This document shows, piece after piece, positions 1,041-58,293 of a stretch of DNA of 64,000 bases (position 1 is its first letter; each line of letters opens with the position of its first letter). The stretch covers positions 2,270-66,269 of the forward strand of contig JAGORQ010000003.1 in assembly GCA_018062705.1 (NCBI GenBank), in the 5' to 3' direction. Below the pieces are notes generated by a model, which saw only the letters and a list, made by a program, of their open reading frames with translations, did no database searches and was not told where the DNA came from. The stretch comes from Candidatus Shapirobacteria bacterium. GTDB lineage: Bacteria; Patescibacteriota; Microgenomatia; UBA12405. A program made the position numbers and the translations under genes.

Positions 1041-1538
1041 TTACCTCGCCGTAGCTTCCTCGCGAAGGCGGGCCATCATAAATAAATAATCTGACAATCT
1101 ATTGATATATATAAGTATGTTTGGATCTATTTGTTGGCTTTGGCTCAATGTCACCAATCGTCTCTCACATCGTCGACACACTGTCCTCACCCAATTAATT
1201 TCCCTCGCCTCTTTATTTTTAAAAATCAAAAAACCAGTGATTGGACCTAAGTTTTTTTCTAACTCTTGCGTTTCTTTCTCCAGATTGAAGATTGAAGTTT
1301 GAAGATTGAAGATCGAGCCATAGGCGATCACCCCCATTATTTCATAAAGGTCTTTCTGAATTTTACTTAGCACTGTGGACTTAGCACTTAGCACCCCCAA
1401 TGATGCCTGCAACTCGTCTAATGTTCCTACCGCCTCCAGTAGTGGCGAATCCTTCACCACTACTTTCCCGCTCCATCTACTCTTCCCATCATCGCCAGTT
1501 TTAGTAGTAATACTCATGAGCATTTCGAATAACCACAA
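1041..1538 (-). CDS. ATP:cob(I)alamin adenosyltransferase, PduO-type
   Basis: N-terminal ITTKTGDDG...LEAVGTLDEL motif typical of PduO-type adenosyltransferases; adjacent to B12-dependent nrdJ; carries in-frame heptamer insert (SIFNLQTSIFNL). Confidence 0.65.
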   Translation of the reverse strand: MWLFEMLMSITTKTGDDGKSRWSGKVVVKDSPLLEAVGTLDELQASLGVLSAKSTVLSKIQKDLYEIMGVIAYGSIFNLQTSIFNLEKETQELEKNLGPITGFLIFKNKEAREINWVRTVCRRCERRLVTLSQSQQIDPNILIYINRLSDYLFMMARLREEATAR

Positions 1539-4093
1539 AATGAATTACTGCATTTAAAACACCCTTCTTCGGCATACAATGGACTACCACAATCCGGGCA
1601 CGAGCTAAATTTACTTTCACTTTCTGCCTGTTTAGATCTAATTTCCGATAATATATTTTTCTGTACGGGCGCAATGCTTTGCGCCCCTACTTCAATTGGA
1701 TTTTTCTCCTCTTCAAACATTGCCAATTGTTCACCTCTCGATACTTCGAGTAATGACTTACCCACTGCATCAAACATGCTCAAAATTGCATTTGGCCCCG
1801 TCCCCACTCTCTGGCCACAAGATATTCCTACCAATTCGTCAGCCAACTCATCCAAACTGGCTCCATATTTTAATGCCAGTGATGCCAATCGACCCGTCAC
1901 TTCAGCCGAGCCGGCCATATAACCACCCGACTTCCCTAGAGTTACAAAAATTTCTACCGGACCATCCCCTTCCTCAAAAAATACTGAGGTATACACCTTC
2001 CCTACATCAGAAGTTTTTCTAAATCTCACCCCCCTGGCCGCCTCCGGCGTCTTCTTCTTGCTAGCCAACTTCAAACTTACTTCTAGTTTCTCGTTTCTCG
2101 TTTCTAGTTTCTTTTCTGTGACCGGTGCAATCACTTCTTTCTCTCTACTTCCACTTCGATAAATTGTGATCCCCTTGGTCCCTAGAGAATAGGCCAATCT
2201 ATAGGCAGTTCGCACATCTTCGACTGTCGCTTCTTTGGGAAAATTAATTGTTTTACTGACTGCATTATCTGTGAATTCCTGAAATGCGGCCTGAAGCTTT
2301 ACATGCCATTCCGGCGTAATCTCCAAAGCCGTCCTAAATATATTTTTTATATCATCTGGCAACTCCTCCATTCCTGACAGCTTACCTCCATTTTTGACAA
2401 TCTTGTCCAAGAGTTGATCATTATATAAATCACGTCTTTTCAATTCTTCTACAAACACTGGGTTCATCATATATAGAGTTTTGCCTTCCACCGTATTCTT
2501 TTGAAAACCCAAACTAAATGCCGGTTCCACTCCACTACTACAGTCGGCAATCATGCTGATTGTTCCGGTTGGAGCAATCGTTGTTAATGCCATATTGCGT
2601 GGTCGGTAATCAGTTCCGAGAAACACCGACACCTCCCAAGCGGGAAACACCCCCCTAGTTTTGGCCAATTCAACAGTTTCTTTTCTTGACTCTTCATTAA
2701 TAAATTTCATCAATTTTCTCGCCCATACAATTCCTTCTTCTGAATCGTAACGAACTCCCAATTTAAACAACATATCTGCAAATCCCATCACTCCCAACCC
2801 AATCCTACGGGTTTTCGACACCATATCCCGGATTTTTTGCACCGGAAACTCGTTTACCTCCACCACATTATCCAAAAAATGAATTGCCTCGTGTACCACC
2901 CTCGCCAACTCATCCCAGTCAATATCTCTTCGTATTATTCCAGTTTCTAGTTTCTCGTTTCTAGTTTCTGTTTCCAAATCTTTCTCTATAATAAATTTGG
3001 AAACATTTATCGACCCCAAATTACACGCATCATACGGCAACAATGGTTGCTCCCCACACGGATTGGTAGCTTCAATTCTACCCAACTTTGGCACTGGGTT
3101 ACTGTTAGCATCATTCATTCTGTCAATAAATACCAACCCCGGATCACCATATTGCCAAGCCAGTCGAGTTACCAAATTAAATACTTTGTAGGCGTTCAAC
3201 TTCATCACTACCTTACAATTTCGTGGATTTATCAATTCATAACCTTCACCCTCATTTGTGGCCTTAGCCCAATCATAAAGTTTTACAATCCATTGTTCAA
3301 TTGTCCTCAATCGCAAATCAACATCTCGCAATCCTTCTGCTTCCCTAATTTTTTCCACTACTTCTTCGGGAAAGGACTCGTCGCTCACAAATCTTTTATC
3401 TGGCTCAATTTGATCCATAAACTTGTTAGTTATCGCCAGAGAAATATTGAAGTTAGTCAACGAATATTCATCCAGTTTTACTACCGCAAATCTCAATACA
3501 TCTGGATGATCTACCGACAACATGCCCATATTTGCCCCCCTACGTACTCCACCTTGCTTGATCTGACTAGTTACATCATTGTAGGCCTGCATAAAACTTA
3601 CCGGCCCAACAGTCGTCCCACCCGATGTGGCAATATAGTCTCCACTTGGTCTCAATCGAGTGAACGAAAACCCAGTGCCTCCACCACTTTTATGGATTTT
3701 GGCCATATCCGTCATTGTTTCCAGTATCGATTCCATCGAATCATCAATTGGCAACACAAAACAAGCTGATAATTGTTGATGTTTTTTGCCAGCATTCACC
3801 AAACAAGGTGTGTTTGGAAAAAATTTTTGCTCGGCCATCATTTCATAAAACACTTTAGCCTGCTGCTCTATATTTGATTGAAGATTGAAGTTTGTAGATT
3901 GAAAATTCTCATCGCCCTTGGCTATGTTACTCGCCACTCTCCAAAAAATATCCTTGGCAGTTTCCACCACCTTCCCCGACTCGTCCTTCATTGCATATCT
4001 TGTTTCGGCAATATACTTTGCGTTTGGCGACAGCATCGGTTCTTTTAATTCAGCACCGTTAATCTGATTATTTCTTTGGTTTAAATCGTTCAT
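1514..4093 (-). CDS. nrdJ: ribonucleotide reductase, class II (adenosylcobalamin-dependent)
   Basis: Motifs LSACFVLPIDDS, NPCGEQPL..YDACNLGSIN, C-terminal CxxC zinc finger; downstream of nrdR. Confidence 0.9.
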   Translation of the reverse strand: MNDLNQRNNQINGAELKEPMLSPNAKYIAETRYAMKDESGKVVETAKDIFWRVASNIAKGDENFQSTNFNLQSNIEQQAKVFYEMMAEQKFFPNTPCLVNAGKKHQQLSACFVLPIDDSMESILETMTDMAKIHKSGGGTGFSFTRLRPSGDYIATSGGTTVGPVSFMQAYNDVTSQIKQGGVRRGANMGMLSVDHPDVLRFAVVKLDEYSLTNFNISLAITNKFMDQIEPDKRFVSDESFPEEVVEKIREAEGLRDVDLRLRTIEQWIVKLYDWAKATNEGEGYELINPRNCKVVMKLNAYKVFNLVTRLAWQYGDPGLVFIDRMNDANSNPVPKLGRIEATNPCGEQPLLPYDACNLGSINVSKFIIEKDLETETRNEKLETGIIRRDIDWDELARVVHEAIHFLDNVVEVNEFPVQKIRDMVSKTRRIGLGVMGFADMLFKLGVRYDSEEGIVWARKLMKFINEESRKETVELAKTRGVFPAWEVSVFLGTDYRPRNMALTTIAPTGTISMIADCSSGVEPAFSLGFQKNTVEGKTLYMMNPVFVEELKRRDLYNDQLLDKIVKNGGKLSGMEELPDDIKNIFRTALEITPEWHVKLQAAFQEFTDNAVSKTINFPKEATVEDVRTAYRLAYSLGTKGITIYRSGSREKEVIAPVTEKKLETRNEKLEVSLKLASKKKTPEAARGVRFRKTSDVGKVYTSVFFEEGDGPVEIFVTLGKSGGYMAGSAEVTGRLASLALKYGASLDELADELVGISCGQRVGTGPNAILSMFDAVGKSLLEVSRGEQLAMFEEEKNPIEVGAQSIAPVQKNILSEIRSKQAESESKFSSCPDCGSPLYAEEGCFKCSNSFCGYSKCS
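1663..1690. repeat. 28-bp palindromic element (family A) in-frame in nrdJ
   Basis: See 20530-20557. Confidence 0.8.
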
Positions 4094-4149
4094 ATAAAGC
4101 CCCGCGCAGCGGCATCTTTTTTAATTAGTAATTAGTAATTTGTAATTAG

Positions 4150-4593
4150 TCATTTTTTAAACTCCTCTACAATCTTCTTAAACTCCCCCACCTCTTTAAT
4201 ATCCAAATAAATCGTCGCAAACCGGATATACGCCACCGGGTCAGTTTTTTTCAAAATATCCATCACCAACTTCCCAATTTCTTTAGAAGGGATTTCCACA
4301 CTCTTCCAGTTAAGAAGCTTCATTTCTATTTCATCAATCAATTTTTGTCGTTCATCTGCCGTCACCCGCCACAAAGCCCTCTCAAAACATCTCTCTAGTT
4401 TTTCTCGTTGATAATCTTCAACTGATCCATCCTTTTTGACCACCTTCAATTCAATACTGCCCACCTTTTCATAGGTTGTGAACCGCTTGGCACACTTGAC
4501 ACACTCCCTTCGACGCCTAGTGGCCTTGCCTTCCATCGCATCCCGCGACTCAAGGACGTTGCTTTCATCAAAACCGCAATAAGGACATAACAT
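4150..4593 (-). CDS. nrdR: transcriptional repressor NrdR
   Basis: MLCPYCG...Zn-ribbon plus ATP-cone sequence; upstream of nrdJ. Confidence 0.9.
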   Translation of the reverse strand: MLCPYCGFDESNVLESRDAMEGKATRRRRECVKCAKRFTTYEKVGSIELKVVKKDGSVEDYQREKLERCFERALWRVTADERQKLIDEIEMKLLNWKSVEIPSKEIGKLVMDILKKTDPVAYIRFATIYLDIKEVGEFKKIVEEFKK

Positions 4594-16219: not shown

Positions 16220-17245
16220 TTATCTCAAATTATCAGCAAAAAATCCAATATCCCTCTCCACCGCCTCTTTCCACCCCTTCGTCAAATTATGATCACTTCC
16301 TTCATACACATCCAGTGTGGCATCTTTATCCAGACTTTTTAATTTAGTTACCACTTTTTCCTGCCAACTAAGCTTGACCTGATCATCAATCGTCCCCTGC
16401 TGAATTAATATTGGCGCATTTATCCATTGATAATAATTTTCAAACGCATATCGCCGGGCATCATAATGCTTCTCAAAATCCTCCATTATTTGTTTTATTG
16501 GGCTATCAACATCAATGGTTGACAACACACTGTCCGGAAACGGTTGGGTCATTGGCGCCCACAATACAGCAGGATACTTTTCTCCAGTAATTTCCAACAC
16601 CGACAACACAATCTGCCCACCATTACTATGTGCCCAAATTCCAATTTTAGTTTTATCTACCCAGGGCAATTGCTTAACTGCATTAATTAAATCAAGTACT
16701 TCCGCCACTTTGTGAAATCTAGCCTCAAGTGGATCAATGGATTCTCCATCCGAATTTCCATATCCCAAAAAATCCAAACTAACCGTGGCATAACCTGCCT
16801 CAGCCAATTTGTCCGCTACTCGCCAACTCCCCGACCCCGGGTAATACCCCGCCTTTTCCGCATACCCCCGAACCATTATTATTACTGGCGTCAAGCTGTT
16901 TTTTTCAGGAAAATAATTGATCATTCCCGACACTTTTTTACCATCACTCTCAAAGCTAATTTCTCGTGTATCAAATTGACGGTCATACTTCAACTTTTGT
17001 TGCTTTCTCCGATCTTCTACAGGCTTTAAGTTTCCCAATATTTTAAAATTTCCTGCAGATTGCAGTTTGTAGATTGAAGATTGCCGTAGACTATCAAAAT
17101 CGTACCTCAGCAAACTTTGCTCAATCTTTTCTTTTTCTTCCCCCTTTGGATCCATCCACCCTCTCGGCCAAAAATAATACCCCACCGCCACCAATATGGT
17201 TGCCACTCCAATTCCTATTAACCATTTGCCTAAACTTTTTCTCAC
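16220..17245 (-). CDS. alpha/beta hydrolase (membrane-anchored)
   Basis: N-terminal TM helix, GIWAHSNGG nucleophile-elbow-like motif; in-frame heptamer insert at 17056-17085. Confidence 0.55.
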   Translation of the reverse strand: MRKSLGKWLIGIGVATILVAVGYYFWPRGWMDPKGEEKEKIEQSLLRYDFDSLRQSSIYKLQSAGNFKILGNLKPVEDRRKQQKLKYDRQFDTREISFESDGKKVSGMINYFPEKNSLTPVIIMVRGYAEKAGYYPGSGSWRVADKLAEAGYATVSLDFLGYGNSDGESIDPLEARFHKVAEVLDLINAVKQLPWVDKTKIGIWAHSNGGQIVLSVLEITGEKYPAVLWAPMTQPFPDSVLSTIDVDSPIKQIMEDFEKHYDARRYAFENYYQWINAPILIQQGTIDDQVKLSWQEKVVTKLKSLDKDATLDVYEGSDHNLTKGWKEAVERDIGFFADNLR

Positions 17246-33058: not shown

Positions 33059-33083
33059 ACATCTTACTTCTTACATCTTAAAT

Positions 33084-37431: not shown

Positions 37432-37486
37432 AAATTAGTAATTAGTAATTAGTAATTGGTAATTAGTAATTAGTAATTAGTAATTA
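37432..37486. repeat. (TAATTAG)n heptanucleotide tandem array, about 8 units
   Basis: aaattagtaattagtaattagtaattggtaattagtaattagtaattagtaatt. Confidence 0.9.
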
Positions 37487-37507
37487 GTAATTAAAGTATA
37501 ATCAAGT

Positions 37508-38593
37508 ATGTCCCTCTACGACGACCTACGCTTAAAACTCCCCCAACTCGACATTCGCCAAAACTCTCCCCTCGCCCCCTACACCACTCTTCGCATTGGC
37601 GGTCCTGCTGAATGTTTGGTTGTGGTCACCAAACAATCCGAACTTTTTTCCATTCTAAAATTTATTTCCCAACAAATTGTAGATTGTAAATTGAAGATTG
37701 AAGATTTTCGTATTCTCGGCAAAGGCTCCGATCTGGTAATTTCCGACTCTGGCCTACCCGGTCTAACCATTATCAATCGTGCCTCCCAGATCCATATTCA
37801 CCCCAAAGTTGAAATGATAAATGGTTCAACGAAAAATGATAAATTTTCCCCAATCAGCACTCAGCGGAATGAAAATGAACCAGAAAAATATCTTGATTTT
37901 GGGAAAATCGATTATGACGAATCAGGACTACCCACTCAACTAGTTACTCTCCAAGCCGGTACACCACTTCCCTTTGCCATCAACCAATTACTCAACGAAG
38001 GTCTTACTGGGCTCCAATGGTTTGCCTATATTCCCGGTACTGTCGGCGGTGCTGTTTATCAAAACATTCATGGTGGCAAATACCATTTTTCCGATTATAT
38101 CGACTCTATAAAAACTTTTAATCTCAAAACTGGTAAAACTCAACTTTTCAAAAAAACCGATTTAAATTGGCACTACGAAACCAGTTTTTTTCAATCAAAC
38201 TACCATTTAATAATACTTTCTGCCACACTTCGACTTTTTCGGGGCGACGCCAACCTGGCTCGACAAGTAACCACCGCTTGGATCGCTCAAAAAACCAAGG
38301 TTCAACCCATGAATTCCGCCGGCTCAGTTTTTGCCAACCCGTCACCCGAAATTTGTCAAAAAATTTGGGGCGAACAAAAATCAGCCGGTTGGATCATCGA
38401 CCACGAGTTGGGCTGGAAGGGTAAAGCTATCGGCGGTGCTCAAATTAGCCCGCTTCACTCCAATTTTATTGTCAACACTGGTACCGCCACCGCAAAAGAC
38501 TACCACTCCCTAGTCAAACAAATCATCGCCGAAGTTAAAACTCGTTTTGACTTTGAACTTATCCCTGAAATAAAGTTTTTAGGACAAATTTAG
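37508..38593 (+). CDS. murB: UDP-N-acetylenolpyruvoylglucosamine reductase
   Basis: FAD-binding N-terminus and MurB C-terminal collinearity; in-frame heptamer insert IVDCKLKIEDF. Confidence 0.8.
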   Translation: MSLYDDLRLKLPQLDIRQNSPLAPYTTLRIGGPAECLVVVTKQSELFSILKFISQQIVDCKLKIEDFRILGKGSDLVISDSGLPGLTIINRASQIHIHPKVEMINGSTKNDKFSPISTQRNENEPEKYLDFGKIDYDESGLPTQLVTLQAGTPLPFAINQLLNEGLTGLQWFAYIPGTVGGAVYQNIHGGKYHFSDYIDSIKTFNLKTGKTQLFKKTDLNWHYETSFFQSNYHLIILSATLRLFRGDANLARQVTTAWIAQKTKVQPMNSAGSVFANPSPEICQKIWGEQKSAGWIIDHELGWKGKAIGGAQISPLHSNFIVNTGTATAKDYHSLVKQIIAEVKTRFDFELIPEIKFLGQI

Positions 38594-39374
38594 GTAAATC
38601 CAACTTCCTTTTCCTTCTCCCCTTATCAGTAAAAAACGAGTAGAGCCACTCCAGTCCCATCCCCCTCACCCACCTTGGCGCTCGAGGCAATTCTCCAGAA
38701 TAATAATCAAAAGTCCTCCCCAACCCAATCACCACCCCCACCTTAAGCTCGTGAAGATGTTCGTTTATCCACTCTTCTTGTTTCTTCATTGCCCGACAAA
38801 CAAATAAAAAATCTACTTTTATTTCAAAATTAAAATCCTCGGCCTGTGCCCCTACCACTTTTAATTTTGGATATTTTTTCAAAAAATATTTCGCTGTCCG
38901 CTCCGACCTATCATCCCAACCCCCATAAAAAAACACCGTCTTATTAGTTTTCTCCGCCAAGGCACACAACTCATCGACCAAGTCTACCCCCGAAATAATT
39001 TTATTTTTATATCCTCCGCCCAAAACTTTAACCCCTTCTATCGCTCCAAAAAATATTCTTTTTACTATTTTAATAATTCGTAATTCGTCATTCGTAATTC
39101 GTAATTGAACTTCATTGGCCCAGGCTAATCCTACTCCATCAACCACGTTAACCGATGTCCGCTCTTGCAACATTTTCAAAAATTCCCCATCCTTCCATGT
39201 AGCCATCACAAACTCCGGATTCACAGTAGCTATCCAAACCGGTTTTTTAAGTTCACCCGATTCTACCATTTTTAGCAGTAAGCCCATCGAACTGCCAAAT
39301 AGTGGAATTCCGTACATATAGTCTATCTTTCCGCATTTTTCTATTATCAGTCTAGACTCTTCTCCAGTCCTCAT
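38559..39374 (-). CDS. WecB/TagA/CpsF-family glycosyltransferase
   Basis: Collinear with TagA family; in-frame heptamer insert LRITNDELRI. Confidence 0.65.
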   Translation of the reverse strand: MRTGEESRLIIEKCGKIDYMYGIPLFGSSMGLLLKMVESGELKKPVWIATVNPEFVMATWKDGEFLKMLQERTSVNVVDGVGLAWANEVQLRITNDELRIIKIVKRIFFGAIEGVKVLGGGYKNKIISGVDLVDELCALAEKTNKTVFFYGGWDDRSERTAKYFLKKYPKLKVVGAQAEDFNFEIKVDFLFVCRAMKKQEEWINEHLHELKVGVVIGLGRTFDYYSGELPRAPRWVRGMGLEWLYSFFTDKGRRKRKLDLPKFVLKTLFQG

Positions 39375-39776
39375 AGCTCCATTTTAGCAAATATTTCCCT
39401 ATACTCCCCTAGCAAAAACAGTTACTGGATAAGAAAATATTTTGCGACCTGTTTTTGCCCACCAACAACCACATCAAACTAGTCAAAAAACCCTCGATAC
39501 CAATAATTATACAGGTTAGTCAACATAACTATATCACCCGTTAAATACCTAATTTACTATAAGTTTTAAAACCAACTATATCATCTTTCAAAAAACAATC
39601 GTTTAGAACAACATTTTTATTCAACATAATTACCTATGACCAAAGCAATTAATCTAAATATTTACCAAAAATATACCAAAACTCTACCAAGAACAATATA
39701 AGTTAAAAAGACAATGATAAATGACAAATGATAAATGATAAATATTCAAAATTACAGGATGTAATTTTGAAGTATA

Positions 39777-40778: not shown

Positions 40779-40886
40779 AAAAATATTCTCCTACCAAATC
40801 ATTCTATCAAAAAGAACCACCTCCACTATCACTTTCCTTCATTATTAATTATTAATTATTAATTAGTAATTAGGTATAATATCTTT

Positions 40887-42899: not shown

Positions 42900-42976
42900 C
42901 GGGGATTGGCGCAATTGGCTAGCGCGCACGGTTCGGGATCGTGAGGTTGCTGGTTCGAATCCAGTATCCCCGACCA
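42900..42976 (+). tRNA. tRNA-Pro (anticodon CGG), CCA encoded
   Basis: Manual cloverleaf: acceptor CGGGGAT/ATCCCCG, D-stem GCGC/GCGC, anticodon loop TTCGGGA, T-arm GCTGG-TTCGAAT-CCAGT. Confidence 0.85.
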
Positions 42977-43100
42977 GTCGGATACTGGATGAGAAGTTTA
43001 TCCTGAGCGAAGTCGAAGGAAATCCAGTATCCCCGACCAGTCGGATACTGGATGAGAAGTTTATCCTGAGCGAAGTCGAAGGAAATCCAGTATCCCCGAC
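42961..43100 (+). repeat. 2.2 tandem copies of a 63-bp unit beginning with the tRNA-Pro 3' end (CCAGTATCCCCGACCA...)
   Basis: Units 42961-43023, 43024-43086, partial 43087-43100 identical. Confidence 0.9.
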
Positions 43101-43254
43101 AAAAATAATTAATAATTAACAATTAATAATTACTAATTAAGAACAACTGTCCATTCTCTGATGATTGAGCAATCCAATCATCACAAGTTTTTTGTATTGA
43201 TAGTTTTCAACTACTAATTATTAATTCGTAATTAGTAATTAGTAGTTAATGTTC

Positions 43255-45289: not shown

Positions 45290-47878
45290 CTATCTAACTA
45301 CAAAGTTGACCATCCTGCCTGGCACATAAATTTCCTTAACCACCTCTTTTCCCTCCAACCACTGCGTCATCTTCGGCAACTCCTTTGCCAGTTTTATTAT
45401 TTCTTCTTGGCTTTTAACTCGTAACTCGTCACTGTTAACTGATAACTGTTCTCTGACTTTTCCATTCACCGCCACCATAATGGTAACTGACTCCTCCGCC
45501 AGATACTTCTCATCCGCCACCGGCCACTCTTGATCATGAATCGATGAAAAAATCTCGTCATTCCCGCGAAAGCGGGAATCCATTCTTTGCCACATTTCTT
45601 CCGCCGTGTACGGTGCCATTGGTGCCATTAATTTCAAAAAAGTCTCTAAATCATTTCTCGAAACCATTTCTTTGTTATCTTCAAAATCATTTAATAATTT
45701 CATCAATTTTGCCACTACGGTATTGTATCCAAAACTTGCCATATCTTCGGTAATACTTTTTATGGCTTTATTAATGATTATCAGTAGTTCTTTATTACTG
45801 TCAGCAGACTTATTATTTAATTGCTCATTAGTAATTCGTAATTCGTAATTCGTAATTGATTTTTCCACTCTATCCAAAAATCGTTTCACCCCCATGAGAG
45901 TCTTCTCATTCCACGCCATCGTTCCATCAAATGGTCCCATAAACATCAAATACATCCTCACTACATCGACCCCGTACTTATCCGCTACCACCTCTGGCAC
46001 CACCACGTTCCCCTTCGACTTACTCATCCGATTATTGTCTGGTCCCAAAATTACCCCATGGGAAATTCTTTTAAAATATGGCTCGGGTAACTCTTTGGGT
46101 ACTGCGCCAATGTCGTGCAGAAACTGGTAAATAAACCTCGAATACAAAAGATGCAGTGTGTTATGTTCATCGCCACCTATGTAGACATCCACCGGACCCC
46201 AATATTTAATCATCTTTTGGGATGCCAGCTCTTTATTGTTGTGCGGATCCATATATCTTAAAAAGTACCAGTCACTCCCCGCCCAATTTGGCATCGTATC
46301 AGTTTCCCGCACTGCATCACCGTCACAAACTGGACATTTGCAATTCACAAACTCTGGAATTTTTGACAATGGTGACTTGCCATCATCCGTCGGCTCGTAA
46401 GCCTCCACCTCTGGCAACACAATCGGCAACTGTTCTTCCGGCACCGGAATCCACCCCACATTTTTCAATAAATTATTTTTTTCGTCTTCATTTTGGATTT
46501 TAGAATTTAGAATTTGGGATTTTTGATTTTCTGCACATTTATTACAGAAAATCATGGGTATCGGCTCACCCCAATAATGCTGTCTAGAAAAAATCCAATC
46601 TCTTAAGTGATATGACACCACTCTCTTCCCCCAACCCTTTTCTTCAAAATAATCCATCGTCTTCTGCATCGCCTTCGTAAAGTCCATTCCATTTAAAAAA
46701 TCAGAATTCACCATTACACCCTTATCACCCGAATGAACTTGAAAACATTCTTTTTCAACATCCCTCTCTTCTCCATCAACTCCATCTACCACTTTAATAA
46801 TTGGGATTCCAAACTTTTTGGCAAAATCCCAATCTCTCTGGTCATGACCTGGACAACCTTGAACTGCGCCAGTCCCAAAAGTCGCCAACACAAAATCAGT
46901 TATCCAAATTGGAATCTCTTTACCATCAACATGATTTATTGCATAAAGCCCAGAAAACACTCCTGTCTTTTCTTTTCCTAATTCAGTTCTTTCAATCTCG
47001 CTCTTTCGCCTTGCTACTGATATATACTTTTTTATTTCTTCAATCTGTTTCTGATCAACACCAAACTTCCCCGACACGATATCCTGCACAAACTTGTGTT
47101 CTGGTGCCACTACCAAAAAAGTCGCCCCAAAATTTACCGGTGTTGTTGTAAAAATAGCCAGTTTCTCACTCGTGCCCTTAACTTGGAAATCGATATTTAT
47201 CCCCTCTTTTCTCCCAATCCAGTTTATTTGTGCTTGTTTCACTTTCTCAATAAAATCCGTCTTCGCAAGTCCCGACACCAATTTATCTGCATAATCAGTT
47301 ATTTTTACTATCCACTGGCTGATGTTTCTTCTCGATACTTCAGAATGACACCGCTCGCACTTCCCATCGACAACTTCTTCATTGGCCAAACCAATTTTAC
47401 AACTTGGACACCAGTTAATCGGCATCTCCTCTTTGTAGGCCAAACCCTTTTTAAATAATTGAACAAAAATCCACTGTGTCCATTTATAATAGTCTGGGCT
47501 AGTCGTATTTACCTCCCTCTCCCAATCAAACGAAAACGCCAACCGTTTCATCTGACTTCTAAACATATCGGTATTTTCCTTGGTCACTTCTTGCGGTTTC
47601 CGCTTCATCTTTATCGCATAGTTTTCCGTTGGCAAACCAAAGGCATCCCAACCCATCGGAAACATCACCTCATACCCCTGCATTCGCTTAAATCTGGCAT
47701 AGACATCTCCACCAGTAAACGAAAAAGCATGACCTACATGGAGACCCGATCCTGAGGGATAAGGGAACTCATTTAGCACATAAAACTTCCCTTTGCTAGC
47801 TACTCTTTTACTATTTTTTTTGCCCCACTCAGTAATCCATTTTTTCTCGATTTCTAAAAACTTTTTATCTTCGTTCAT
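45290..47878 (-). CDS. leuS: leucine--tRNA ligase
   Basis: HVGHAFSF (HIGH) and KMSKSKGN motifs, editing domain; three in-frame heptamer inserts and one in-frame family-B hairpin (SRFRGNDE). Confidence 0.95.
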   Translation of the reverse strand: MNEDKKFLEIEKKWITEWGKKNSKRVASKGKFYVLNEFPYPSGSGLHVGHAFSFTGGDVYARFKRMQGYEVMFPMGWDAFGLPTENYAIKMKRKPQEVTKENTDMFRSQMKRLAFSFDWEREVNTTSPDYYKWTQWIFVQLFKKGLAYKEEMPINWCPSCKIGLANEEVVDGKCERCHSEVSRRNISQWIVKITDYADKLVSGLAKTDFIEKVKQAQINWIGRKEGINIDFQVKGTSEKLAIFTTTPVNFGATFLVVAPEHKFVQDIVSGKFGVDQKQIEEIKKYISVARRKSEIERTELGKEKTGVFSGLYAINHVDGKEIPIWITDFVLATFGTGAVQGCPGHDQRDWDFAKKFGIPIIKVVDGVDGEERDVEKECFQVHSGDKGVMVNSDFLNGMDFTKAMQKTMDYFEEKGWGKRVVSYHLRDWIFSRQHYWGEPIPMIFCNKCAENQKSQILNSKIQNEDEKNNLLKNVGWIPVPEEQLPIVLPEVEAYEPTDDGKSPLSKIPEFVNCKCPVCDGDAVRETDTMPNWAGSDWYFLRYMDPHNNKELASQKMIKYWGPVDVYIGGDEHNTLHLLYSRFIYQFLHDIGAVPKELPEPYFKRISHGVILGPDNNRMSKSKGNVVVPEVVADKYGVDVVRMYLMFMGPFDGTMAWNEKTLMGVKRFLDRVEKSITNYELRITNEQLNNKSADSNKELLIIINKAIKSITEDMASFGYNTVVAKLMKLLNDFEDNKEMVSRNDLETFLKLMAPMAPYTAEEMWQRMDSRFRGNDEIFSSIHDQEWPVADEKYLAEESVTIMVAVNGKVREQLSVNSDELRVKSQEEIIKLAKELPKMTQWLEGKEVVKEIYVPGRMVNFVVR

Positions 47879-49987: not shown

Positions 49988-50875
49988 TTACAAGTGCGCT
50001 CTGTTTTTTAATAAAAAATAAATTATGATGATGTACCATCCAACTAGCATCATCCAATTAAATTTAATATCTATCACCCCCACCCCACTTCCTCCTACCT
50101 CAATCACCCATCTCAAATACTTTAGTCCAGGTAAAGCCAGCCAAAAAAATATTTTTAACCCAGTCACCATCCCAATTCCTCCAATCACCGTCAAGAATTC
50201 CACTAGTGGTACTACCAACAAATTAGTAGCCACCCCCACCAAACTAATTTTTCCAAAAACTAGAGCTAACACTGGTGTTATCAGTATTGTTACCCACAAA
50301 GAACTAGTTACTGTTTCTATCACCACACCTTTTTTGTTTGATTTTTCGGCTAACAATACTCCTCCAAATGCCAACATTGTCAACCAGAAGCTAACTTGAG
50401 TTAACACCCTAACATCAGCCAAAAACATAATAAAAACCAACAATATAATCGCCCTGCTTTTATTAAATTTTCTCCCTACTAGCTGGGCACCGTATTTTAT
50501 TAATACCAGTAGACCAGCCCTCAACACCGGTATTTGCCACCCCACCAAAGACGTATACTCAACCAACAAAATTAGCCCCAAAATAATTGCCCTCCGTCTT
50601 CCCAAATATTTTGCCCACCACTCGATTGTCATTGTCGCCAACAGCATCACATTTGCTCCCGACACCACTACCAAATGAATTAGCCCACTATTTTGCAACT
50701 CTGTTTTTAGACCAGCACCCGCTTTTCCTAGATCACCCAGTATCATTCCACCTAGTAATCCAGCCTCTTCAAACGGCAGATTTCTCTGAATCACTACCAT
50801 CAAACTATTCTTGTCTACAAACTTGTAGATCAGAAAAACAGCGAGAACTAGTACTAGCCAGCTATTTATTTTCAA
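49988..50875 (-). CDS. comEC: ComEC/Rec2 competence membrane-channel domain protein
   Basis: GLIHLVVVSGANVMLL competence-domain motif, multi-TM. Confidence 0.7.
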   Translation of the reverse strand: MKINSWLVLVLAVFLIYKFVDKNSLMVVIQRNLPFEEAGLLGGMILGDLGKAGAGLKTELQNSGLIHLVVVSGANVMLLATMTIEWWAKYLGRRRAIILGLILLVEYTSLVGWQIPVLRAGLLVLIKYGAQLVGRKFNKSRAIILLVFIMFLADVRVLTQVSFWLTMLAFGGVLLAEKSNKKGVVIETVTSSLWVTILITPVLALVFGKISLVGVATNLLVVPLVEFLTVIGGIGMVTGLKIFFWLALPGLKYLRWVIEVGGSGVGVIDIKFNWMMLVGWYIIIIYFLLKNRAHL

Positions 50876-51410
50876 GGTAATTTTTCCTAATAGAATATAA
50901 CTTCTCAGTCAACCCACCCTCTTGGGCAAATTTCTCAATTTCTACCTTAATTTGTCGATCCAGCAAAAAAGTCACTTGATGGCACAAAGTCAACAGAAAG
51001 TTTGCATCCACTTCGGGCTTTCCTGTCAGCTTAGGTCTTTTTATTAAGTTTCCTAAGTTACCTAAGTTTCTTAAGTTGCTTAATTCATAAGCAAATTGTC
51101 GAAATTTTGTCACCCTAGGATCTGTTTTCTGATAAAGATTTAGTCCTTTTTGCCTCAAAAAATCCTCATAGTCCATTAGCAATTCTTCAAAAGAAGCCTT
51201 CGCCACGCCTAGCAGTTTTATTAGTCCTTTCTTGGAAGTTTGTTCCTGTCCCACTCCCTCCACAATATTTTGTTTACCCGATCTAGCTGCCTGTTCCATC
51301 TGATCGCGAGTTCGCGATTTATAGTCAATATTATTTTCCACAAAATCCATAGTCAAATCATGTATCATTTCGGCATATCGGTAAGATAGTAAGTATTTAA
51401 CTTTATTCAT
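50862..51410 (-). CDS. four-helix-bundle-like protein (23S rRNA IVS protein family-like), between comEA and comEC
   Basis: QNIVEGVG...LLGVAKASFEEL resembles TIGR02436 family; in-frame heptamer insert NLRNLGNLGNL. Confidence 0.4.
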   Translation of the reverse strand: MNKVKYLLSYRYAEMIHDLTMDFVENNIDYKSRTRDQMEQAARSGKQNIVEGVGQEQTSKKGLIKLLGVAKASFEELLMDYEDFLRQKGLNLYQKTDPRVTKFRQFAYELSNLRNLGNLGNLIKRPKLTGKPEVDANFLLTLCHQVTFLLDRQIKVEIEKFAQEGGLTEKLYSIRKNYLENK

Positions 51411-52039
51411 AGTGACAATTTGTCCTTAATCTTTTCAAAAACTTTATCCCCAATTCCCGATACCAGCTTTATCTCCTCAATATTTTTAAATCCCCCATTT
51501 TTCTCCCGATAATCAATAATCCTTTGTGCCAATGCCGGCCCAATTCCTGACAATGTATCCAAATCTTCCACCGTCGCCGTATTTAGGCTAATTATTTCCG
51601 TCTTCACCCCCAATATGTTTGAAGTTGTCGTTTTTTCAATAATTTGGGCTTTAGAGTTTAGAGTTTGGATTTTTTCTGGAATATATATTTTCTCCCCATC
51701 CTTTAGTATCTCCGCCTTATTAATATTCCTCTCCACCCACTCCCTATCCGCCTTGGCAGCTAAACCACCAGCCAGAATCAATGCATCATTAATCCTGCTA
51801 CCTGCGCTTAATTTATAAACTGCTGGTTTGATTACCTCACCAGCCACCTCCACCGTTAATTGGACTATCTTTGTCGGCCCCACTCCGGTTGGAGTAACTT
51901 TTCCTTTTACCAATTCCACTTTTTGACCAGTCTGTTTAAATTTATCAGCCCAACTCATTCCCAAACCAATTACTACCAGTGCCAATCCCAAAATTAGCAA
52001 TCCATCAACCCAGTTTACCTTTCGTAAACTTTCATACAT
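51407..52039 (-). CDS. comEA: competence protein ComEA (TM + SLBB + HhH)
   Basis: C-terminal LNTATVEDLDTLSGIGPALAQRIIDYREKNGGF HhH motif. Confidence 0.8.
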   Translation of the reverse strand: MYESLRKVNWVDGLLILGLALVVIGLGMSWADKFKQTGQKVELVKGKVTPTGVGPTKIVQLTVEVAGEVIKPAVYKLSAGSRINDALILAGGLAAKADREWVERNINKAEILKDGEKIYIPEKIQTLNSKAQIIEKTTTSNILGVKTEIISLNTATVEDLDTLSGIGPALAQRIIDYREKNGGFKNIEEIKLVSGIGDKVFEKIKDKLSL

Positions 52040-52060: not shown

Positions 52061-52717
52061 TTGCTACACTTAATTGTGTCAGCTTTTATCATTATTTTCC
52101 TACTTACCTCAACAGCTTTGTTTGGCTTCGGCATTTCCCTAACACCACTTGTTAATTTTACCCCTCAGTTAATTGCTCTAGTCGGCATCCTCTTTGTAGT
52201 TTTTTTTAAAAATAAAAAAATCTATCTATACCTCCTCGCTCTACTAACCAACTTGATTATTTTTTCTACCGGCGGACTCAATTCACCTGCCTTTTTTCTC
52301 ACCTATTTTTCCTTATTTTTAATTGCTTTTCAAAATTTACCCTCAGTCACTCTCGGCTATTCACTGGCACTAATTTTACTTTTATCTCAATCGCTCAACT
52401 CACCTCTATCACTGATCCCTCTTTTATCACTTTTACTCATCACTCCACTTGTTTGGTTCACCGGCCATGAATTTCTTCAAAAAATTAAAACTGAAAAAAC
52501 CATTAGCCAGGACGAAACCGACTTCCTCCTTTGGCTCAATTTAAAGTTCAAAACTGGCATCACCACTATTGCCGACCTCGCCTCCCAAGTCGCCTCCGAC
52601 CCATCACTTTCACACTCCCAAAAAGAAAATCTCAAAAAAATTAAAAGTAGCGCCCACAACCTACTCAATTCCGCCACCAAATTATCCGCCGAAATTAGCG
52701 ATCAGGACAATGAATAA
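52061..52717 (+). CDS. hypothetical polytopic membrane protein (TTG start)
   Basis: Five or more hydrophobic helices; 8-bp overlap with next gene. Confidence 0.4.
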   Translation: MLHLIVSAFIIIFLLTSTALFGFGISLTPLVNFTPQLIALVGILFVVFFKNKKIYLYLLALLTNLIIFSTGGLNSPAFFLTYFSLFLIAFQNLPSVTLGYSLALILLLSQSLNSPLSLIPLLSLLLITPLVWFTGHEFLQKIKTEKTISQDETDFLLWLNLKFKTGITTIADLASQVASDPSLSHSQKENLKKIKSSAHNLLNSATKLSAEISDQDNE

Positions 52718-53474
52718 AAAATTATTTTTCGTTTTATTCTTACTTCTTACATCTTACTTCTTAAATCTTAATGCTCCGCCCGCCAGGGCGCAACATTTCA
52801 CCTCTACTAATTACATCATCGATTGGGGTAATTTTAATATCACCTCTGGTTCCAAAACTTCTACCAGCTTTAACCTCACCGACACCGTTGGCCAAAACGC
52901 TCCTGGTGCCAACACCTCCACCAGCTACACTCTTAAATCGGGCTTTCAGTATATTTACGATACTTTTAATCAATTTTCTTTCCAAATCAGCAGTCTTTCC
53001 ATTCCCCTAGGCACCTTGGTGCCCGGTGTCGGCACTTCTGCCACCAACACCCTCACCATTACTACCCCCTCTGGTCATGGTTACGAAATATACGCCCTCG
53101 AAAATCACCCACTAGCCCTACTCTCCTCTGGCACTACCATTCCCGACACGAAGTGCGACTCCAACACCTGCTCCGAGACTAGTTCTGGTGTCTGGACCAG
53201 TTCTTCAGCTTATGGTTTTGGTTTCAACACACTTGGAACTAATAGTAGTGGTGCGATTACCCACGTCGGCACCTCGGGTATTTTTACCGACTCAACTTAT
53301 TATCGTCAGTTTGCCAATATTCTCGCCGGTGAAACACCTCAGGTTATTATGACGGAAAATTCTCCAGTCAAAAATCGCACCGCCCAAGTTACCTACAAAT
53401 CCCTCATCTCCGGCATTCAATCTGCCGGCGTTTACCAAAACGCAATTACTTTTATTGCTATACCTAAATACTAA
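52710..53474 (+). CDS. secreted protein; signal peptide encoded by CTTAAAT-type heptamer repeats; C-terminal domain shared with 54910-56394
   Basis: ATG at 52710 (track ORF extends upstream to 52569); MNKKLFFVLFLLLTSYFLNLNAPPARA signal; C-term IPDTKCDSNTCS..WTSSSAYGFGFN homologous to 54910 protein. Confidence 0.5.
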   Translation: MNKKLFFVLFLLLTSYFLNLNAPPARAQHFTSTNYIIDWGNFNITSGSKTSTSFNLTDTVGQNAPGANTSTSYTLKSGFQYIYDTFNQFSFQISSLSIPLGTLVPGVGTSATNTLTITTPSGHGYEIYALENHPLALLSSGTTIPDTKCDSNTCSETSSGVWTSSSAYGFGFNTLGTNSSGAITHVGTSGIFTDSTYYRQFANILAGETPQVIMTENSPVKNRTAQVTYKSLISGIQSAGVYQNAITFIAIPKY

Positions 53475-53478: not shown

Positions 53479-53925
53479 TAGATTTAAGAAGTAAGATTTA
53501 AGATTTATGAATAACACAATAAAAAGTTTTACAGATTTATTTTCTTGGAAAGAAAGTCACCAACTAGTATTAATGGTCTACAAACTTTTAAGAAAATTTC
53601 CTCAAGAAGAAAAATATGCGCTTGGTGATCAAATGCGACGAGCCTCAATTTCTATAACCAGTAATATTGCTGAAGGGTTTGGCAGACAATCGATCAAGGA
53701 AAAAATTCAGTTTTACTATTTAGCTCAAGGATCTCTAACTGAAATAAAAAACCAATTAATTACTTCAAGAGACTTGGGTTACATATCTGGTGAAGAATAC
53801 GATCAAATAATCAAACAGGCAGATTTAGCACACCAAATCCTCCAGGGACTAATTACCAAAACTAAATCTTATTTGAAATAATATTTTATTCTTAAATCTT
53901 ACTTCTTAAATCTTAAATCTAAATT
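53479..53925. mobile_element. candidate cassette: 4HB gene bounded by 22-bp perfect inverted repeats (GATTTAAGAAGTAAGATTTAAG ... CTTAAATCTTACTTCTTAAATC)
   Basis: Left IR 53479-53500, right IR about 53888-53909 are exact reverse complements; built from CTTAAAT heptamers. Confidence 0.45.
53507..53881 (+). CDS. four-helix-bundle protein (TIGR02436 / 23S rRNA intervening-sequence protein family)
   Basis: SITSNIAEGFGRQS...FYYLAQGSLTE signature. Confidence 0.8.
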   Translation: MNNTIKSFTDLFSWKESHQLVLMVYKLLRKFPQEEKYALGDQMRRASISITSNIAEGFGRQSIKEKIQFYYLAQGSLTEIKNQLITSRDLGYISGEEYDQIIKQADLAHQILQGLITKTKSYLK

Positions 53926-53975
53926 AAAATATGTTTTTTGTTTTATTCTTAAATCTTACGTCTTAAATCTTAACT

Positions 53976-56454: not shown

Positions 56455-57471
56455 ATGAAACATATTAGTCAAAATAAAAAAAATATTGGAACTTGGAAAT
56501 TGTTATTTGTATTTTGTTTGGAATTTGTTTTTTGGAATTTGAAATTTACTCAAACGGTCAACGCGCAGAGCGCATTGGGTTTGAGCGCCATTCCTCCCCG
56601 CCTCGAGCTCACAGTCAAACCTGGTGAAGTAGTCACCAAAGAAATTAAAATTAGAAACGAATCAAAGAATGTAAGAAGCATTACAGTATCTGCTCGTGAT
56701 TTTATCGTCACCGACGATGCCGGCACCCCCATTCAAATTGAAGGAGATTCAACCCAAAATCGTTGGGCATCCAGCAATTGGATTAGTGTCTCCCCCTCTT
56801 CTTTTCGCCTTGATCCCGGTGAAACAAAATCATTAATGTTGACTGTCATTGCTCCAGAAGAAGCTCTTCCTGGTGGACACTATGCCATGGTACTTCACAG
56901 TCCCAAAAATGAGGCTGTTTTAAACGACACCGGCTCTGTCATTCAAACCAATGTTGGCACCCTCGTGTACATCACCGTGCCGGGAGATATTACTGAAAAA
57001 GCCCTAGTCAAAGATTTTACCGCCCCCAAATTTTCCGAATATGGACCTGTCGACTTTAAAACCAATATCACCAATTTGTCAGATATTCATATTGCCCCAA
57101 TTGGTAGTGTTGACATCAAAAACCTATTTGGTGGTCGTACCGCTTCGCTCCCTCTATCCAATACCAACATCTTTCCCCAAACCAGTCGCGAGTTCACCAA
57201 CACTCTAGCTCGCAAATGGTTGTTTGGTCGTTACGCCGCCACCCTCAATGCTGGCTATGGCACCACTGGCCAAGCCCTGACTGCCACCATATTCTTCTGG
57301 GTAATTCCCTGGAGACTAATTACTCTCGCTTTAGTAGCCTTAGCGTTAATTGTCACCATCTTTATTCTGGTCCGTCAGCGTCAAACTCCCCCTCCAGAAT
57401 CAACCGACACTCAGGTTGAAGAGCTTGAAAAAGAACTCGCCAAATTAAAACAAAAATATAAAGACCGCTAG
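56455..57471 (+). CDS. cell-surface protein, DUF916/DUF3324-like with C-terminal TM anchor
   Basis: Signal peptide, LELTVKPGEVVTKEIKIRNES... pattern, C-terminal TM + charged tail. Confidence 0.4.
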   Translation: MKHISQNKKNIGTWKLLFVFCLEFVFWNLKFTQTVNAQSALGLSAIPPRLELTVKPGEVVTKEIKIRNESKNVRSITVSARDFIVTDDAGTPIQIEGDSTQNRWASSNWISVSPSSFRLDPGETKSLMLTVIAPEEALPGGHYAMVLHSPKNEAVLNDTGSVIQTNVGTLVYITVPGDITEKALVKDFTAPKFSEYGPVDFKTNITNLSDIHIAPIGSVDIKNLFGGRTASLPLSNTNIFPQTSREFTNTLARKWLFGRYAATLNAGYGTTGQALTATIFFWVIPWRLITLALVALALIVTIFILVRQRQTPPPESTDTQVEELEKELAKLKQKYKDR

Positions 57472-57483
57472 AAAAGTAGATTT

Positions 57484-58293
57484 ATGATTTTCGTCGTCCT
57501 GGTCTTATTCTTAAATCTTAAATCTTACTTCTTAAATCCTTTTCCTCTCCAGGCTATCGCTTCTTCTTCACAGAAATCTGTCGCCATATCCGCCTCTATT
57601 GGCATCAATCGAGTCACCATTCATGGCTACACTTCACCCAACAGTCGAGTCGAATTAAATTCGCCTCGGGTTTTTGCTGTTACTTACAGCAATGATACCG
57701 GAGAGTTTGTCTTTGATAAAACCATACTTCCCAAAAACCCTTCAGATCTTTGCCTGACTTCGATTAATGTGGCCCAAATTCGCACCACTCCAGTGTGTAT
57801 CCCCCCACCTCCATCTACCAACTACCACACCAATATTGGCCCCATATTACTACCTCCTACAGTTGCCCTCGACACCTCGACTATTAAACCAAACAGTACA
57901 GCAATTATTAGTGTTCTAGCCATCCCCAACTCAACAGTAGACATTTATTTCTTTCAAAACTCTCACCACGCCTCAATTTTTCCTTCAGCCCTAGCTTTCT
58001 CTCTCCCCAAAATATCCACCACCACTTCAGCAGACGGCACCTACTCACTTAGTTTACCTACCACTTATTCTAGTGATTATCGAGTTTACGCTAGCGTTTT
58101 TTATCAAGAATTTGCTTCTCCCAAATCAAACACCCTCCTCTACAAACTCCCTTCTCTCTGGTATCTTTTTTGGATAGCCAATCAATATCAAATAATCAGT
58201 TTTATATTTTTAACCTTAATTATCGGTATAATTATCTATTTGATATATTCAAAACAGTATGGACCAAAACCCAGATCAACAGTATCAAAATAG
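57484..58293 (+). CDS. surface protein with heptamer-encoded signal peptide and C-terminal TM anchor
   Basis: MIFVVLVLFLNLKSYFLN signal from CTTAAAT repeats; C-terminal TM. Confidence 0.45.
   Translation: MIFVVLVLFLNLKSYFLNPFPLQAIASSSQKSVAISASIGINRVTIHGYTSPNSRVELNSPRVFAVTYSNDTGEFVFDKTILPKNPSDLCLTSINVAQIRTTPVCIPPPPSTNYHTNIGPILLPPTVALDTSTIKPNSTAIISVLAIPNSTVDIYFFQNSHHASIFPSALAFSLPKISTTTSADGTYSLSLPTTYSSDYRVYASVFYQEFASPKSNTLLYKLPSLWYLFWIANQYQIISFIFLTLIIGIIIYLIYSKQYGPKPRSTVSK

Follow-up and report, generated by a model that had tools for sequence, protein, structure and literature searches.

The stretch of DNA considered here, 64,000 nucleotides of contig JAGORQ010000003.1 (positions 2,270 to 66,269 of the forward strand) from a Candidatus Shapirobacteria bacterium of the candidate phyla radiation (CPR) and hereafter called the window, carries genes on both strands, among them nrdJ, leuS, ruvC, murB, comEC and comEA. 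Short arrays of 7-bp units (heptads) lie within many of these genes and in the DNA between them, and the window also holds a small gene for a four-helix-bundle protein with such an array at either end. The arrays are discrete, oriented modules of about 33 bp and not open-ended tandem repeats, and across several phyla modules of this kind form the inverted terminal arms of four-helix-bundle gene cassettes.

Census and anatomy of the heptad modules

Period 7 accounts for 41 of the 93 rows returned by Tandem Repeats Finder (TRF) for the window, against a mean of 2.3 period-7 rows in third-order Markov simulations of the same DNA (n = 10), and all other periods lie near the Markov expectation. In a separate scan by lag autocorrelation, lag 7 gave 11 strong arrays and no other lag more than one, shuffled sequences gave none, and the abundance of 7-bp arrays, first claimed in an earlier note made from the sequence, is thus borne out. 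Once overlapping TRF rows had been merged and low-complexity rows and those shorter than 24 nt removed, 31 arrays remained (0.48 modules per kb), 27–41 nt long with a median of 33 nt, or about 4.6 units, and with a single outlier of 61 nt. This length distribution is narrow, peaked and the same in coding and intergenic arrays, which does not agree with the multiples of 21 nt that the note had proposed. At least 18 of the 31 arrays lie within open reading frames (ORFs), and about 13 fall in non-coding DNA, which makes up roughly 15% of the window, so that they are enriched four- to five-fold there. The arrays are also relatively G-rich on a G-poor strand, with a G/(G + C) of 0.57 versus 0.35 in the background, and therefore they are no by-product of local base composition, an origin that can be ruled out on these grounds. 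Simple sequence repeats (SSRs) of the phase-variation type do not describe them either, as the arrays are imperfect, near-constant in length and in frame within housekeeping genes.

In register, an array consists of four full 7-bp units and a partial fifth. About five families can be told apart by their units, namely F1 (AGATTGA), F2 (TTTCTAG), F3 (TAATTAG/TAATTCG), F4 (TCTTAAA/TCTTACT) and F5 (TTTAGAA/TTTGGAA), each dispersed over the 64 kb in four to eight copies, and a few arrays are singletons. Copies of one family at unlinked loci agree in unit order, phase and boundaries: all five F2 copies follow the pattern (T/C)TATTCY-AGTTTCT-AG(TT/AA)TCT-[C/G]GTTTCT-AGTTTCT, and a GTTTTAT-like 5' flank precedes all six F4 copies. 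When the order of units was permuted, the mean pairwise identity of family copies exceeded that of the permutations in the four families F1 (p = 0.015), F2 (p < 0.0002), F3 (p = 0.0004) and F4 (p = 0.0002). The orientation of the family is kept by 25 of the 26 copies of the five main families, as tallied from the array listing, whatever the strand of the host gene, and the one exception, which is inverted, forms the upstream arm of the four-helix-bundle cassette. Shared order and ends, peaked length, common orientation and G-richness fit copies of master modules and not independent products of slippage.

The four-helix-bundle cassette

The protein encoded by the cassette (Table 1) matched PF05635 at 3.7e-36, above the gathering score, NCBIfam TIGR02436 at 1.1e-34 (118.9 bits versus a cut-off of 24) and PDB 2gsc, one entry with five chains, at 7.9e-21; it also had a bAvd-like match (PF22296), and its match to the Avd model NF033474 was weak (8e-07, with 29 bits versus the 80-bit equivalog cut-off). 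The cassette spans 53480–53925, its ORF lies between the halves of an inverted repeat that is perfect over 24 bp (downstream half 53890–53913), and the stem between the two arms appears in both the minimum-free-energy and the centroid predicted RNA folds (z = −3.3). Rfam found no rRNA in the window, and the cassette sits between protein genes. The second four-helix-bundle gene of the window is without heptad arms and is split by a period-9 repeat (51040–51083, peptide NLRNLGNLGNL). With PADLOC, neither the four-helix-bundle gene nor the genes adjacent to the primase listed in Table 1 matched a defence system.

The association of heptad arrays with this gene family was followed in 80 metagenomic loci encoding homologues, of which 65 had enough flank for arrays to be counted at the ends of the gene. 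Period-7 arrays cluster at the gene, 117 of the 143 found in the 80 loci lying within 100 nt of the four-helix-bundle ORF. An array abuts the gene in 54 of the 65 loci and is present at each end in 34, and all 34 two-ended pairs are inverted, the upstream unit being the reverse complement of the downstream unit with at most two mismatches. In a control set of 1383 other ORFs, drawn from the NrdJ loci and the window, arrays were present at one end of 6% and at both ends of 0.5%. The arms have a median length of 31 nt, and in two loci that are 97.8% identical their copy number is unchanged. Of 25 solo arrays at a distance of over 150 nt from the gene, 10 carried the arm unit of their own locus, versus 12.5% for the arms of other loci. 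A phmmer search with the window protein gave no homologue in 86 NrdJ-centred loci.

Searching 72,556 plasmids by tblastn yielded homologues in 33 records, mostly of Nostoc, Calothrix, Trichormus and Scytonema, which are the classical taxa of the short tandemly repeated repetitive sequences (STRRs). Flanking heptamer arrays were present in all eight plasmid records inspected (two of Nostoc PCC 7120 and one each of Calothrix, Pseudanabaena, N. punctiforme, Stanieria, the Bacteroidota member Riemerella and the alphaproteobacterium Azospirillum), five of the eight having clearly inverted pairs. In the first 50 kb of N. punctiforme pNPUN01, cassette arms, inverted pairs without an ORF and solos occur side by side, all of 32–34 nt. 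The cassette arrangement recurs in CPR, Cyanobacteria, Bacteroidota and Proteobacteria. On the Pseudanabaena plasmid NZ_CP112875.1 (45668–47218), the four-helix-bundle gene lies between cas6 and cas4 in a CRISPR-Cas locus and has long AAAAGCT/AAAAGCC arrays of 14–15 units.

Arrays within genes

The NrdJ of the window is 100% identical to an NCBI protein of Candidatus Shapirobacteria. In an alignment of 27 orthologues, the three arrays of NrdJ coincide with three hypervariable indel sites of a protein that is otherwise 70–80% identical (nearest non-identical relatives 70–81%), and at the same sites other orthologues are empty or hold another array family or another repeat-derived peptide. The LeuS sites, compared among 54 orthologues, hold other array families or none in other lineages. 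The AlphaFold model of NrdJ is of moderate confidence (mean predicted local distance difference test score, pLDDT, of 62); it places sites 2 and 3 in low-confidence coil, site 2 with a pLDDT below 50, and site 1 in a short interhelical coil. Site 1 and the array at 1282 in the PduO-like gene have the order AGATTGA-AGTTTGx-AGATTGA in common and are read in different frames. The latter array aligns without gaps to non-repeat sequence of orthologues. Heptamer arrays also occur in the NrdJ of Nitrospirae at the same two permissive sites as in the Shapirobacteria gene.

Table 1. Positions of heptad arrays, four-helix-bundle genes and neighbouring features in the window, and of NrdJ arrays in Nitrospirae loci.
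Feature	Position	Strand	Family or unit	Peptide or remark
Four-helix-bundle gene, 124 aa	53507–53881	+		TIGR02436 / PF05635 23S_rRNA_IVP / bAvd-like
Cassette, upstream arm	53480–53507	−	F4	inverted module abutting ATG
Cassette, downstream arm (53888–53925) and further F4 module (53947–53973)	53888–53973	+	F4	
Second four-helix-bundle gene, between comEC and comEA	50862–51410	−		TIGR02436 N-terminal part + TIGR04258 'four helix bundle suffix' domain
nrdJ	1514–4093	−		
NrdJ site 1	3876–3907	+	F1	NFQSTNFNLQS
NrdJ site 2	2938–2974	+	F2	ETETRNEKLETG; PDB 1xje gapped opposite
NrdJ site 3, linker after catalytic core	2081–2112	+	F2	KKLETRNEKLE
leuS site a	46490–46530	+	F5 (TTTAGAA)	within insertion missing from most orthologues and PDB 1h3n
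leuS site b	45827–45857	+	F3 (TAATTCG)	SITNYELRITN; +8 to +11 aa vs shortest orthologues
leuS site c, C-terminal domain	45415–45450	+	TAACTCG/TAACTGA	+3 aa vs most orthologues
PduO-like gene (1041–1538, −)	1282–1313	+	F1	IFNLQTSIFNL
PduO-like gene	1365–1394	+	ACTTAGC	VLSAKSTVLS; orthologue region length-variable
alpha/beta-hydrolase gene (16220–17245, −)	17057–17083	+	F1	N-terminal to catalytic domain; decayed
ManC-like gene	23556–23595	+	F3 (TAATTCG/TAATTAA)	between NTP_transferase and beta-helix domains
Trans_reg_C protein gene (+)	33903–33934	+	F2	other-strand reading HLVSRIWFLVSK
ruvC, beta-hairpin near N-terminus	36409–36442	+	F2	ETRNEILDSR; +1 to +4 aa
Metallophos phosphoesterase gene	37203–37234	+	F2, decayed	ETRNEILETG
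murB (+)	37674–37706	+	F1	QIVDCKLKIEDF; 7-aa insertion vs PDB 3tx1
WecG/TagA-like gene	39074–39106	+	F3 (TAATTCG)	LRITNDELRI
comEA	51650–51666	+	TTTAGAG	short, 2.4 units
ORF 52710–53474 (ATG 52710 probable start)	52737–52771	+	F4	hydrophobic core FLLLTSYFLNLN
ORF 56455–57471	56517–56547	+	F5-like (TTTGGAA)	CLEFVFWNLKF; signal-peptide-like N-terminus
ORF 57484–58293	57509–57538	+	F4	FLNLKSYFLNP; signal-peptide-like N-terminus
nrdR-nrdJ intergenic	4122–4154	+	F3 (TAATTAG)	
Three 99-bp direct repeats by AEP-like primase gene	26699–26998	+		one 33-bp module each, same position
ruvB-ruvA intergenic	33054–33085	+	F4 (TCTTAAA/TCTTACT)	conserved GTTTTAT flank before
Phosphoesterase/murB divergent intergenic	37433–37493	+	F3	double length (8.7 units)
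Downstream of mreB, intergenic	39713–39743	+	AATGATA	
mreB/PEGA-domain gene intergenic	40841–40872	+	ATTATTA/TAATTAG	
tRNA-Pro/tRNA-Arg intergenic	43104–43140	+	AATAATT	
tRNA-Pro/tRNA-Arg intergenic	43215–43248	+	TAATTAG/TAATTCG	
Just upstream of leuS start codon	47906–47936	+	F5	
Nitrospirae NrdJ, locus L056	3953–3988		ACAGAAG-type	Coxiella IVS unit family
Nitrospirae NrdJ, locus L069	3389–3414, 4215–4250		ACAGAAG-type	Coxiella IVS unit family
Nitrospirae NrdJ, locus L070	10933–10963		AGTCAAG	

Pfam or PDB matches confirmed NrdJ, the alpha/beta hydrolase, the ManC-like protein, Trans_reg_C, RuvC, Metallophos, MurB, WecG/TagA, LeuS and ComEA as products of host genes, and the PduO-like gene was assigned to Cob_adeno_trans in Pfam via its syntenic orthologues. 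The three + strand ORFs of Table 1 that are named by their coordinates had no Pfam match, and their N-termini are, judging from the residues they contain, probably signal peptides. Coding arrays occupy lineage-specific hypervariable loops, linkers or signal-peptide-like segments; the note had expected lineage-specific segments within conserved enzymes, and they were found at NrdJ sites 1–3, LeuS sites a–c, MurB (+7 aa) and RuvC, and also as it had stated, the same unit families recur in intergenic DNA. At each position that it listed there is an array or a decayed copy, with the reservations that the repeat in its '4HB gene' (51040–51083) has a period of 9 and that the one in comEA has 2.4 copies. 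Its list was incomplete, six arrays having escaped it (1365–1394, 33054–33085, 39713–39743, 52737–52771, 53480–53507 and 56517–56547), and pyrG, which it had named as a host, holds no array.

Which module stands in which gene follows the distribution of stop codons. TAATTAG, with stops in both senses, is confined to intergenic DNA, and its stop-free variant TAATTCG is the form present in − strand genes; F2 has a TAG in every unit and persists in only one frame per strand, opened by the [C/G]G variant unit. In − strand genes the sense strand of the arrays is A-rich and gives E/K/R/N/T peptides in loops, and in the three + strand genes with signal-peptide-like N-termini it is T-rich and gives F/L/Y/S peptides.

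Repeat-derived peptides that are not heptad-based, such as IASS..PRNDV, SFEERRG/SFDERRG, NPLSSELEDISLEKGDLKAP..GG and LRQAQDKF, stand at the same hot spots in relatives of NrdJ (P0014, P0018, P0022, P0028, P0037, P0051, P0071 and P0083) and of LeuS (P0249, P0255 and P0284), and therefore several repeat classes invade CPR genes in frame.

Comparison with known repeat systems

Bacterial heptanucleotide repeats, the commonest of the long simple repeats, have been on record since 1990; the cyanobacterial STRRs, which are short tandemly repeated repetitive heptanucleotides, were reportedly described by Mazel et al. in 1990, and Elhai et al. are said to have found, in 2008, small dispersed repeats inserted in cyanobacterial heptamer arrays. 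The four-helix-bundle family annotated as '23S rRNA intervening sequence (IVS) protein' was recognised in the 1990s; its members abound in many phyla, and a structure has been solved. To our knowledge, the origin and function of the repeats are unexplained and the protein family has no known function, so that the link between arrays and cassettes joins two orphan features.

The STRRs are the nearest counterpart, and the comparison with them made in the note is apt. Both systems have 7-bp units, short tandem arrays, several dispersed families and some intragenic copies (32% of the Anabaena heptamer repeats; PMC4692102), and the arrays of the window match those on Nostoc and Calothrix plasmids in size and architecture. 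Known heptamer families include, besides the STRRs, GGGAATC in Xanthomonas and GGGGA(C/T)T in Nostoc/Anabaena (PMC4692102) and TAACTGA (PMC4679880). The present host differs in being a CPR bacterium with a genome of about 1 Mb, in which more than half of the copies lie in ORFs, those of essential enzymes included, and in the strict orientation kept by each family, none having been reported in Anabaena or Xanthomonas (PMC4692102). TAACTGA repeats occur in Beggiatoaceae, Cyanobacteria and Bacteroidetes in 2–6 copies, mostly just upstream of start codons, with 24 sets within ORFs, and their patchy spread across phyla suggested horizontal transfer with 'no mechanism evident' (MacGregor 2015, PMC4679880). 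The LeuS site c array contains TAACTGA units; the TAACTGA system differs, however, in being a single family that was read as a translational regulator site and for which no associated gene was identified. Terms for the four-helix-bundle or S23 family are absent from both papers (PMC4679880, PMC4692102).

The rRNA IVSs of Leptospira and Coxiella share with the cassette a PF05635 protein and an ORF enclosed by an inverted-repeat stem, and in the Coxiella 23S rRNA IVS, GACAGAT heptamers in strain-variable copy number lie directly upstream of the S23p ORF (PMC4990558). The window cassette, by contrast, lies outside rRNA genes, and no description of solo arms dispersed over protein genes is known for IVSs. 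Repetitive extragenic palindromic elements (REPs) and the REPINs composed of them resemble the present modules as dispersed short non-coding repeats that also flank, in inverted orientation, a small putative cognate gene, that of the REP-associated tyrosine transposase (RAYT) (PMC3116915). REPs are palindromic hairpins, however, and RAYT is an IS200-like HUH transposase (PMC3116915), whereas here a direct heptad array accompanies an Avd-like four-helix bundle without known catalytic activity. The flanked gene of the window encodes a four-helix-bundle protein, and no Y1 transposase was seen among the ORFs scanned.

Rickettsia palindromic elements (RPEs) are palindromes of 100–150 bp that stand in frame in conserved protein genes and are tolerated at surface sites. 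The likeness to them that the note had drawn holds for in-frame presence inside conserved ORFs and fails for size and symmetry, since the modules are 27–41 bp long, non-palindromic and internally periodic direct repeats; RPEs may thus serve as a functional analogy only. The Avd protein of diversity-generating retroelements has a homologous four-helix-bundle fold (bAvd; PMC10053308), but the Avd match of the window protein is weak, no reverse transcriptase was seen beside its gene among the ORFs scanned, and no pair of template and variable repeats was seen there. In the literature we found no report of heptamer repeats in CPR bacteria, nor of a link between such repeats and four-helix-bundle genes beyond the remark on Coxiella (PMC4990558). 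Heptamer families and intragenic copies were already known, and what appears to be new is their occurrence in CPR and a possibly general link to four-helix-bundle genes.

Proposed origin and spread of the solo modules

The anatomy, families, orientation, gene positions and cassette association of the modules are observed; an arm-to-solo descent, the mechanism of spread and any binding by the four-helix-bundle protein are inferences. The reading that we prefer, with moderate confidence, is that the solos descend from cassette arms as non-autonomous copies, which would spread by templated copying or conversion and be filtered by selection. Solos would derive from the arms much as in the case of REP/REPIN and RAYT, and their spread would be templated on existing copies instead of arising from local polymerase slippage. 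Because 33 bp equal 11 codons, the reading frame is kept, and within genes only stop-free combinations of family, strand and frame survive. The encoded peptide also fits its site, E/K/R/N/T in surface loops and linkers and F/L/Y/S in signal-peptide-like cores, and permissive sites become hot spots, filled anew in each lineage by a family of its own. The orientation bias could stem from a strand-specific step tied to the one-sided replication asymmetry of the lineage, and the five-unit periodicity may mirror binding by a pentameric Avd-like protein.

Several observations weigh against this descent from cassette arms. The window holds one canonical cassette versus about 30 solos, and no cassette with F1, F2, F3 or F5 arms was seen in it; a scan of roughly 52 of the window's ORFs, about 30 smaller ones aside, against Pfam or NCBIfam revealed neither a reverse transcriptase nor a transposase or RAYT. 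A single mismatch separates F1 (AGATTGA) from F4 read as its reverse complement, and for this reason co-orientation is valid only for strictly defined families; some families of related species have copies in both orientations with respect to the skewed strand. The nearest available relative is only about 80% identical in NrdJ, and comparison with relatives caught no insertion event. Moreover, several coding arrays add few or no residues (none at PduO 1282, +3 at LeuS site c, +1 to +4 in RuvC), and this, together with a module length of about 33 bp, or 11 codons, within and outside genes, also speaks against the inserts of 7 or 14 aa envisaged in the note. As some arrays overlay existing residues, 'in-frame insertion' covers part of the cases, and an overlay without change of length means that plain 33-bp insertion is insufficient and that overwriting, conversion or compensating deletions are needed.

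A wider proposal, which we put forward tentatively and regard as possible but doubtful, is that the five-unit arrays might be cognate nucleic-acid sites of pentameric Avd-like proteins, making up with them a widespread selfish or regulatory system across phyla that would resemble REP-RAYT, would account for STRRs, the Xanthomonas GGGAATC and Beggiatoa TAACTGA repeats and rRNA IVSs, and would continually rewrite loops and signal peptides in essential proteins of Shapirobacteria, with an orientation tied to strand asymmetry.

The modules might instead be functional cis elements, either binding sites of an oligomeric protein (for example a pentameric Avd-like one) or RNA signals, that are held in place by selection and not by ongoing spread, the coding copies imposing their function on the mRNA or DNA. 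The array at NrdJ site 2 argues for this, as it is identical at 32 of 33 nt, taken straight from the two array sequences, to that of the related locus L001, although the genes are 71.5% identical and their third positions, saturated at synonymous sites, 47%; judged on nucleotide comparison, this points to recent parallel gain, conversion or a constraint at the nucleotide level. Five-unit architecture is likewise conserved across phyla when unit sequence is not, the PDB homologue 2gsc has five chains in a single entry, and many intergenic copies lie just upstream of start codons, as TAACTGA repeats do (PMC4679880). Yet orthologues manage just as well where these sites are empty or hold another family, decay is evident in many copies (37203, 17057 and LeuS site c), and the origin of new copies is left unexplained, so that such a function, which we consider unlikely to be the whole account, would complement copying from cassette arms and not replace it.

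Still less probable is an origin as ordinary long SSRs, in which the polymerase slips by 7 nt, arrays arise locally from chance proto-repeats and selection purges lengths that shift the frame; a 'polymerase footprint' as the cause of 7-nt slippage is an idea attributed to Mrazek and colleagues. Heptamers are the most abundant class of long SSRs in many prokaryotes (cited in PMC4679880 and PMC4692102), and arrays at the same position can differ by one change repeated in every unit, as in concerted evolution: the modules of the three 99-bp repeats at 26699–26998 differ in their units (TTACGGA; TCATTAG/TAATTAG; TCATTTG), and the PduO array at 1282 has TCTTCAA units where the L002 orthologue has GATTCAA, the same two bases being changed per unit. 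Slippage would not, however, readily produce lengths that peak at about 4.6 units without decay with length, in intergenic DNA too, nor the recurrence of a few unit families with common unit order, phase and ends at unlinked loci, nor the strong orientation bias within families. It is also at odds with array composition that opposes the local skew and with the constant arm copy number of the two nearly identical metagenomic loci, and it leaves the tight tie to one gene family without explanation.

That selection acts on the proteins, favouring peptide additions such as disordered linkers or heptad-like motifs in CPR enzymes with the DNA periodicity as an incidental feature, appears very improbable. 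The inserts are indeed in frame and hydrophilic in loops, ETRNEKLE- and ELRITNY-like peptides recur across proteins and species, and the Borg tandem repeats, reported to create disordered regions (PMC9879509), offer a precedent; but one DNA module gives unrelated peptides in different frames and strands (IFNLQTS, NFQSTNF and QIVDCKLKIED; ETRNEILD and HLVSRIWFLVS), identical modules are common in non-coding DNA, and conservation is at the nucleotide level, third positions included. An artefact of assembly or sequencing may be dismissed, for although the contig belongs to a metagenome-assembled genome and four-helix-bundle genes are often near contig ends, long ORFs stay intact through the arrays, which turn up again at orthologous positions in assemblies made independently in different studies and in finished plasmid sequences of Nostoc, Calothrix and Riemerella.

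For CPR bacteria, these observations mean that a tiny, streamlined genome tolerates, and is perhaps shaped by, repeats that edit loops in enzymes (NrdJ, LeuS, RuvC and MurB among them) and signal peptides in secreted proteins. In practice, the modules inflate apparent protein divergence, break assemblies and could act as strain markers.

Genome background and distribution

The window contains 25.8% C versus 13.7% G, with genes on both strands and a GC skew of −0.18 to −0.38; proteins encoded on the − strand are rich in E/K/G/V and those on the + strand in S/T/Q/L/P. The same strand disparity is present in all related Shapirobacteria loci, and a chromosome-wide G/C disparity has been published for the Microgenomates order UBA1400 (PMC7143001). 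A data artefact as the source of the skew is ruled out by its presence in all related assemblies and by this published record for the lineage.

The distribution of heptad modules was followed in a sample of 80 GTDB species obtained via NrdJ. A subset of Shapirobacteria with 39–44% G+C has them at 0.1–0.27 per kb, low-G+C Shapirobacteria, Curtissbacteria and Saccharibacteria have essentially none in this NrdJ-based sample, and they appear again in Nitrospirae, inside NrdJ, and in one Endomicrobia contig. In the latter (L085, 5328–5680 and 8530–8760), inverted AGAGTGA arrays surround about 300 nt of non-coding, hairpin-rich DNA, and an array with a period of 48 nt has ATTCGTA heptad modules alternating with GCCGTTAAAAGCCGTTG.

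Other features of the window

An AdoCbl-II riboswitch (545–623, − strand; 41.3 bits versus a gathering score of 36.5) lies near the B12-dependent nrdJ gene and the gene for the PduO-like adenosyltransferase. The 99-bp repeats follow an AEP-like primase gene (26103–26690), and beyond them is a small Xis/MerR-like helix-turn-helix (HTH) ORF (27045–27302) of less skewed composition; the region 26103–27302, with its primase, iteron-like repeats and HTH ORF, may represent a replication module of plasmid- or phage-like type that has become integrated. A BrnT toxin/CopG-type antitoxin pair is encoded at 24446–25013, and syntenic loci of relatives carry other toxin-antitoxin pairs (PhdYeFM/ParE, PIN). 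The 3' end of tRNA-Pro (42900–42976) is overlapped by a perfect 63-nt direct repeat of 2.3 copies (42958–43100) that looks like an integration (att) scar, and an ORF with a Phage_int_SAM domain only is found at 59770–60192.

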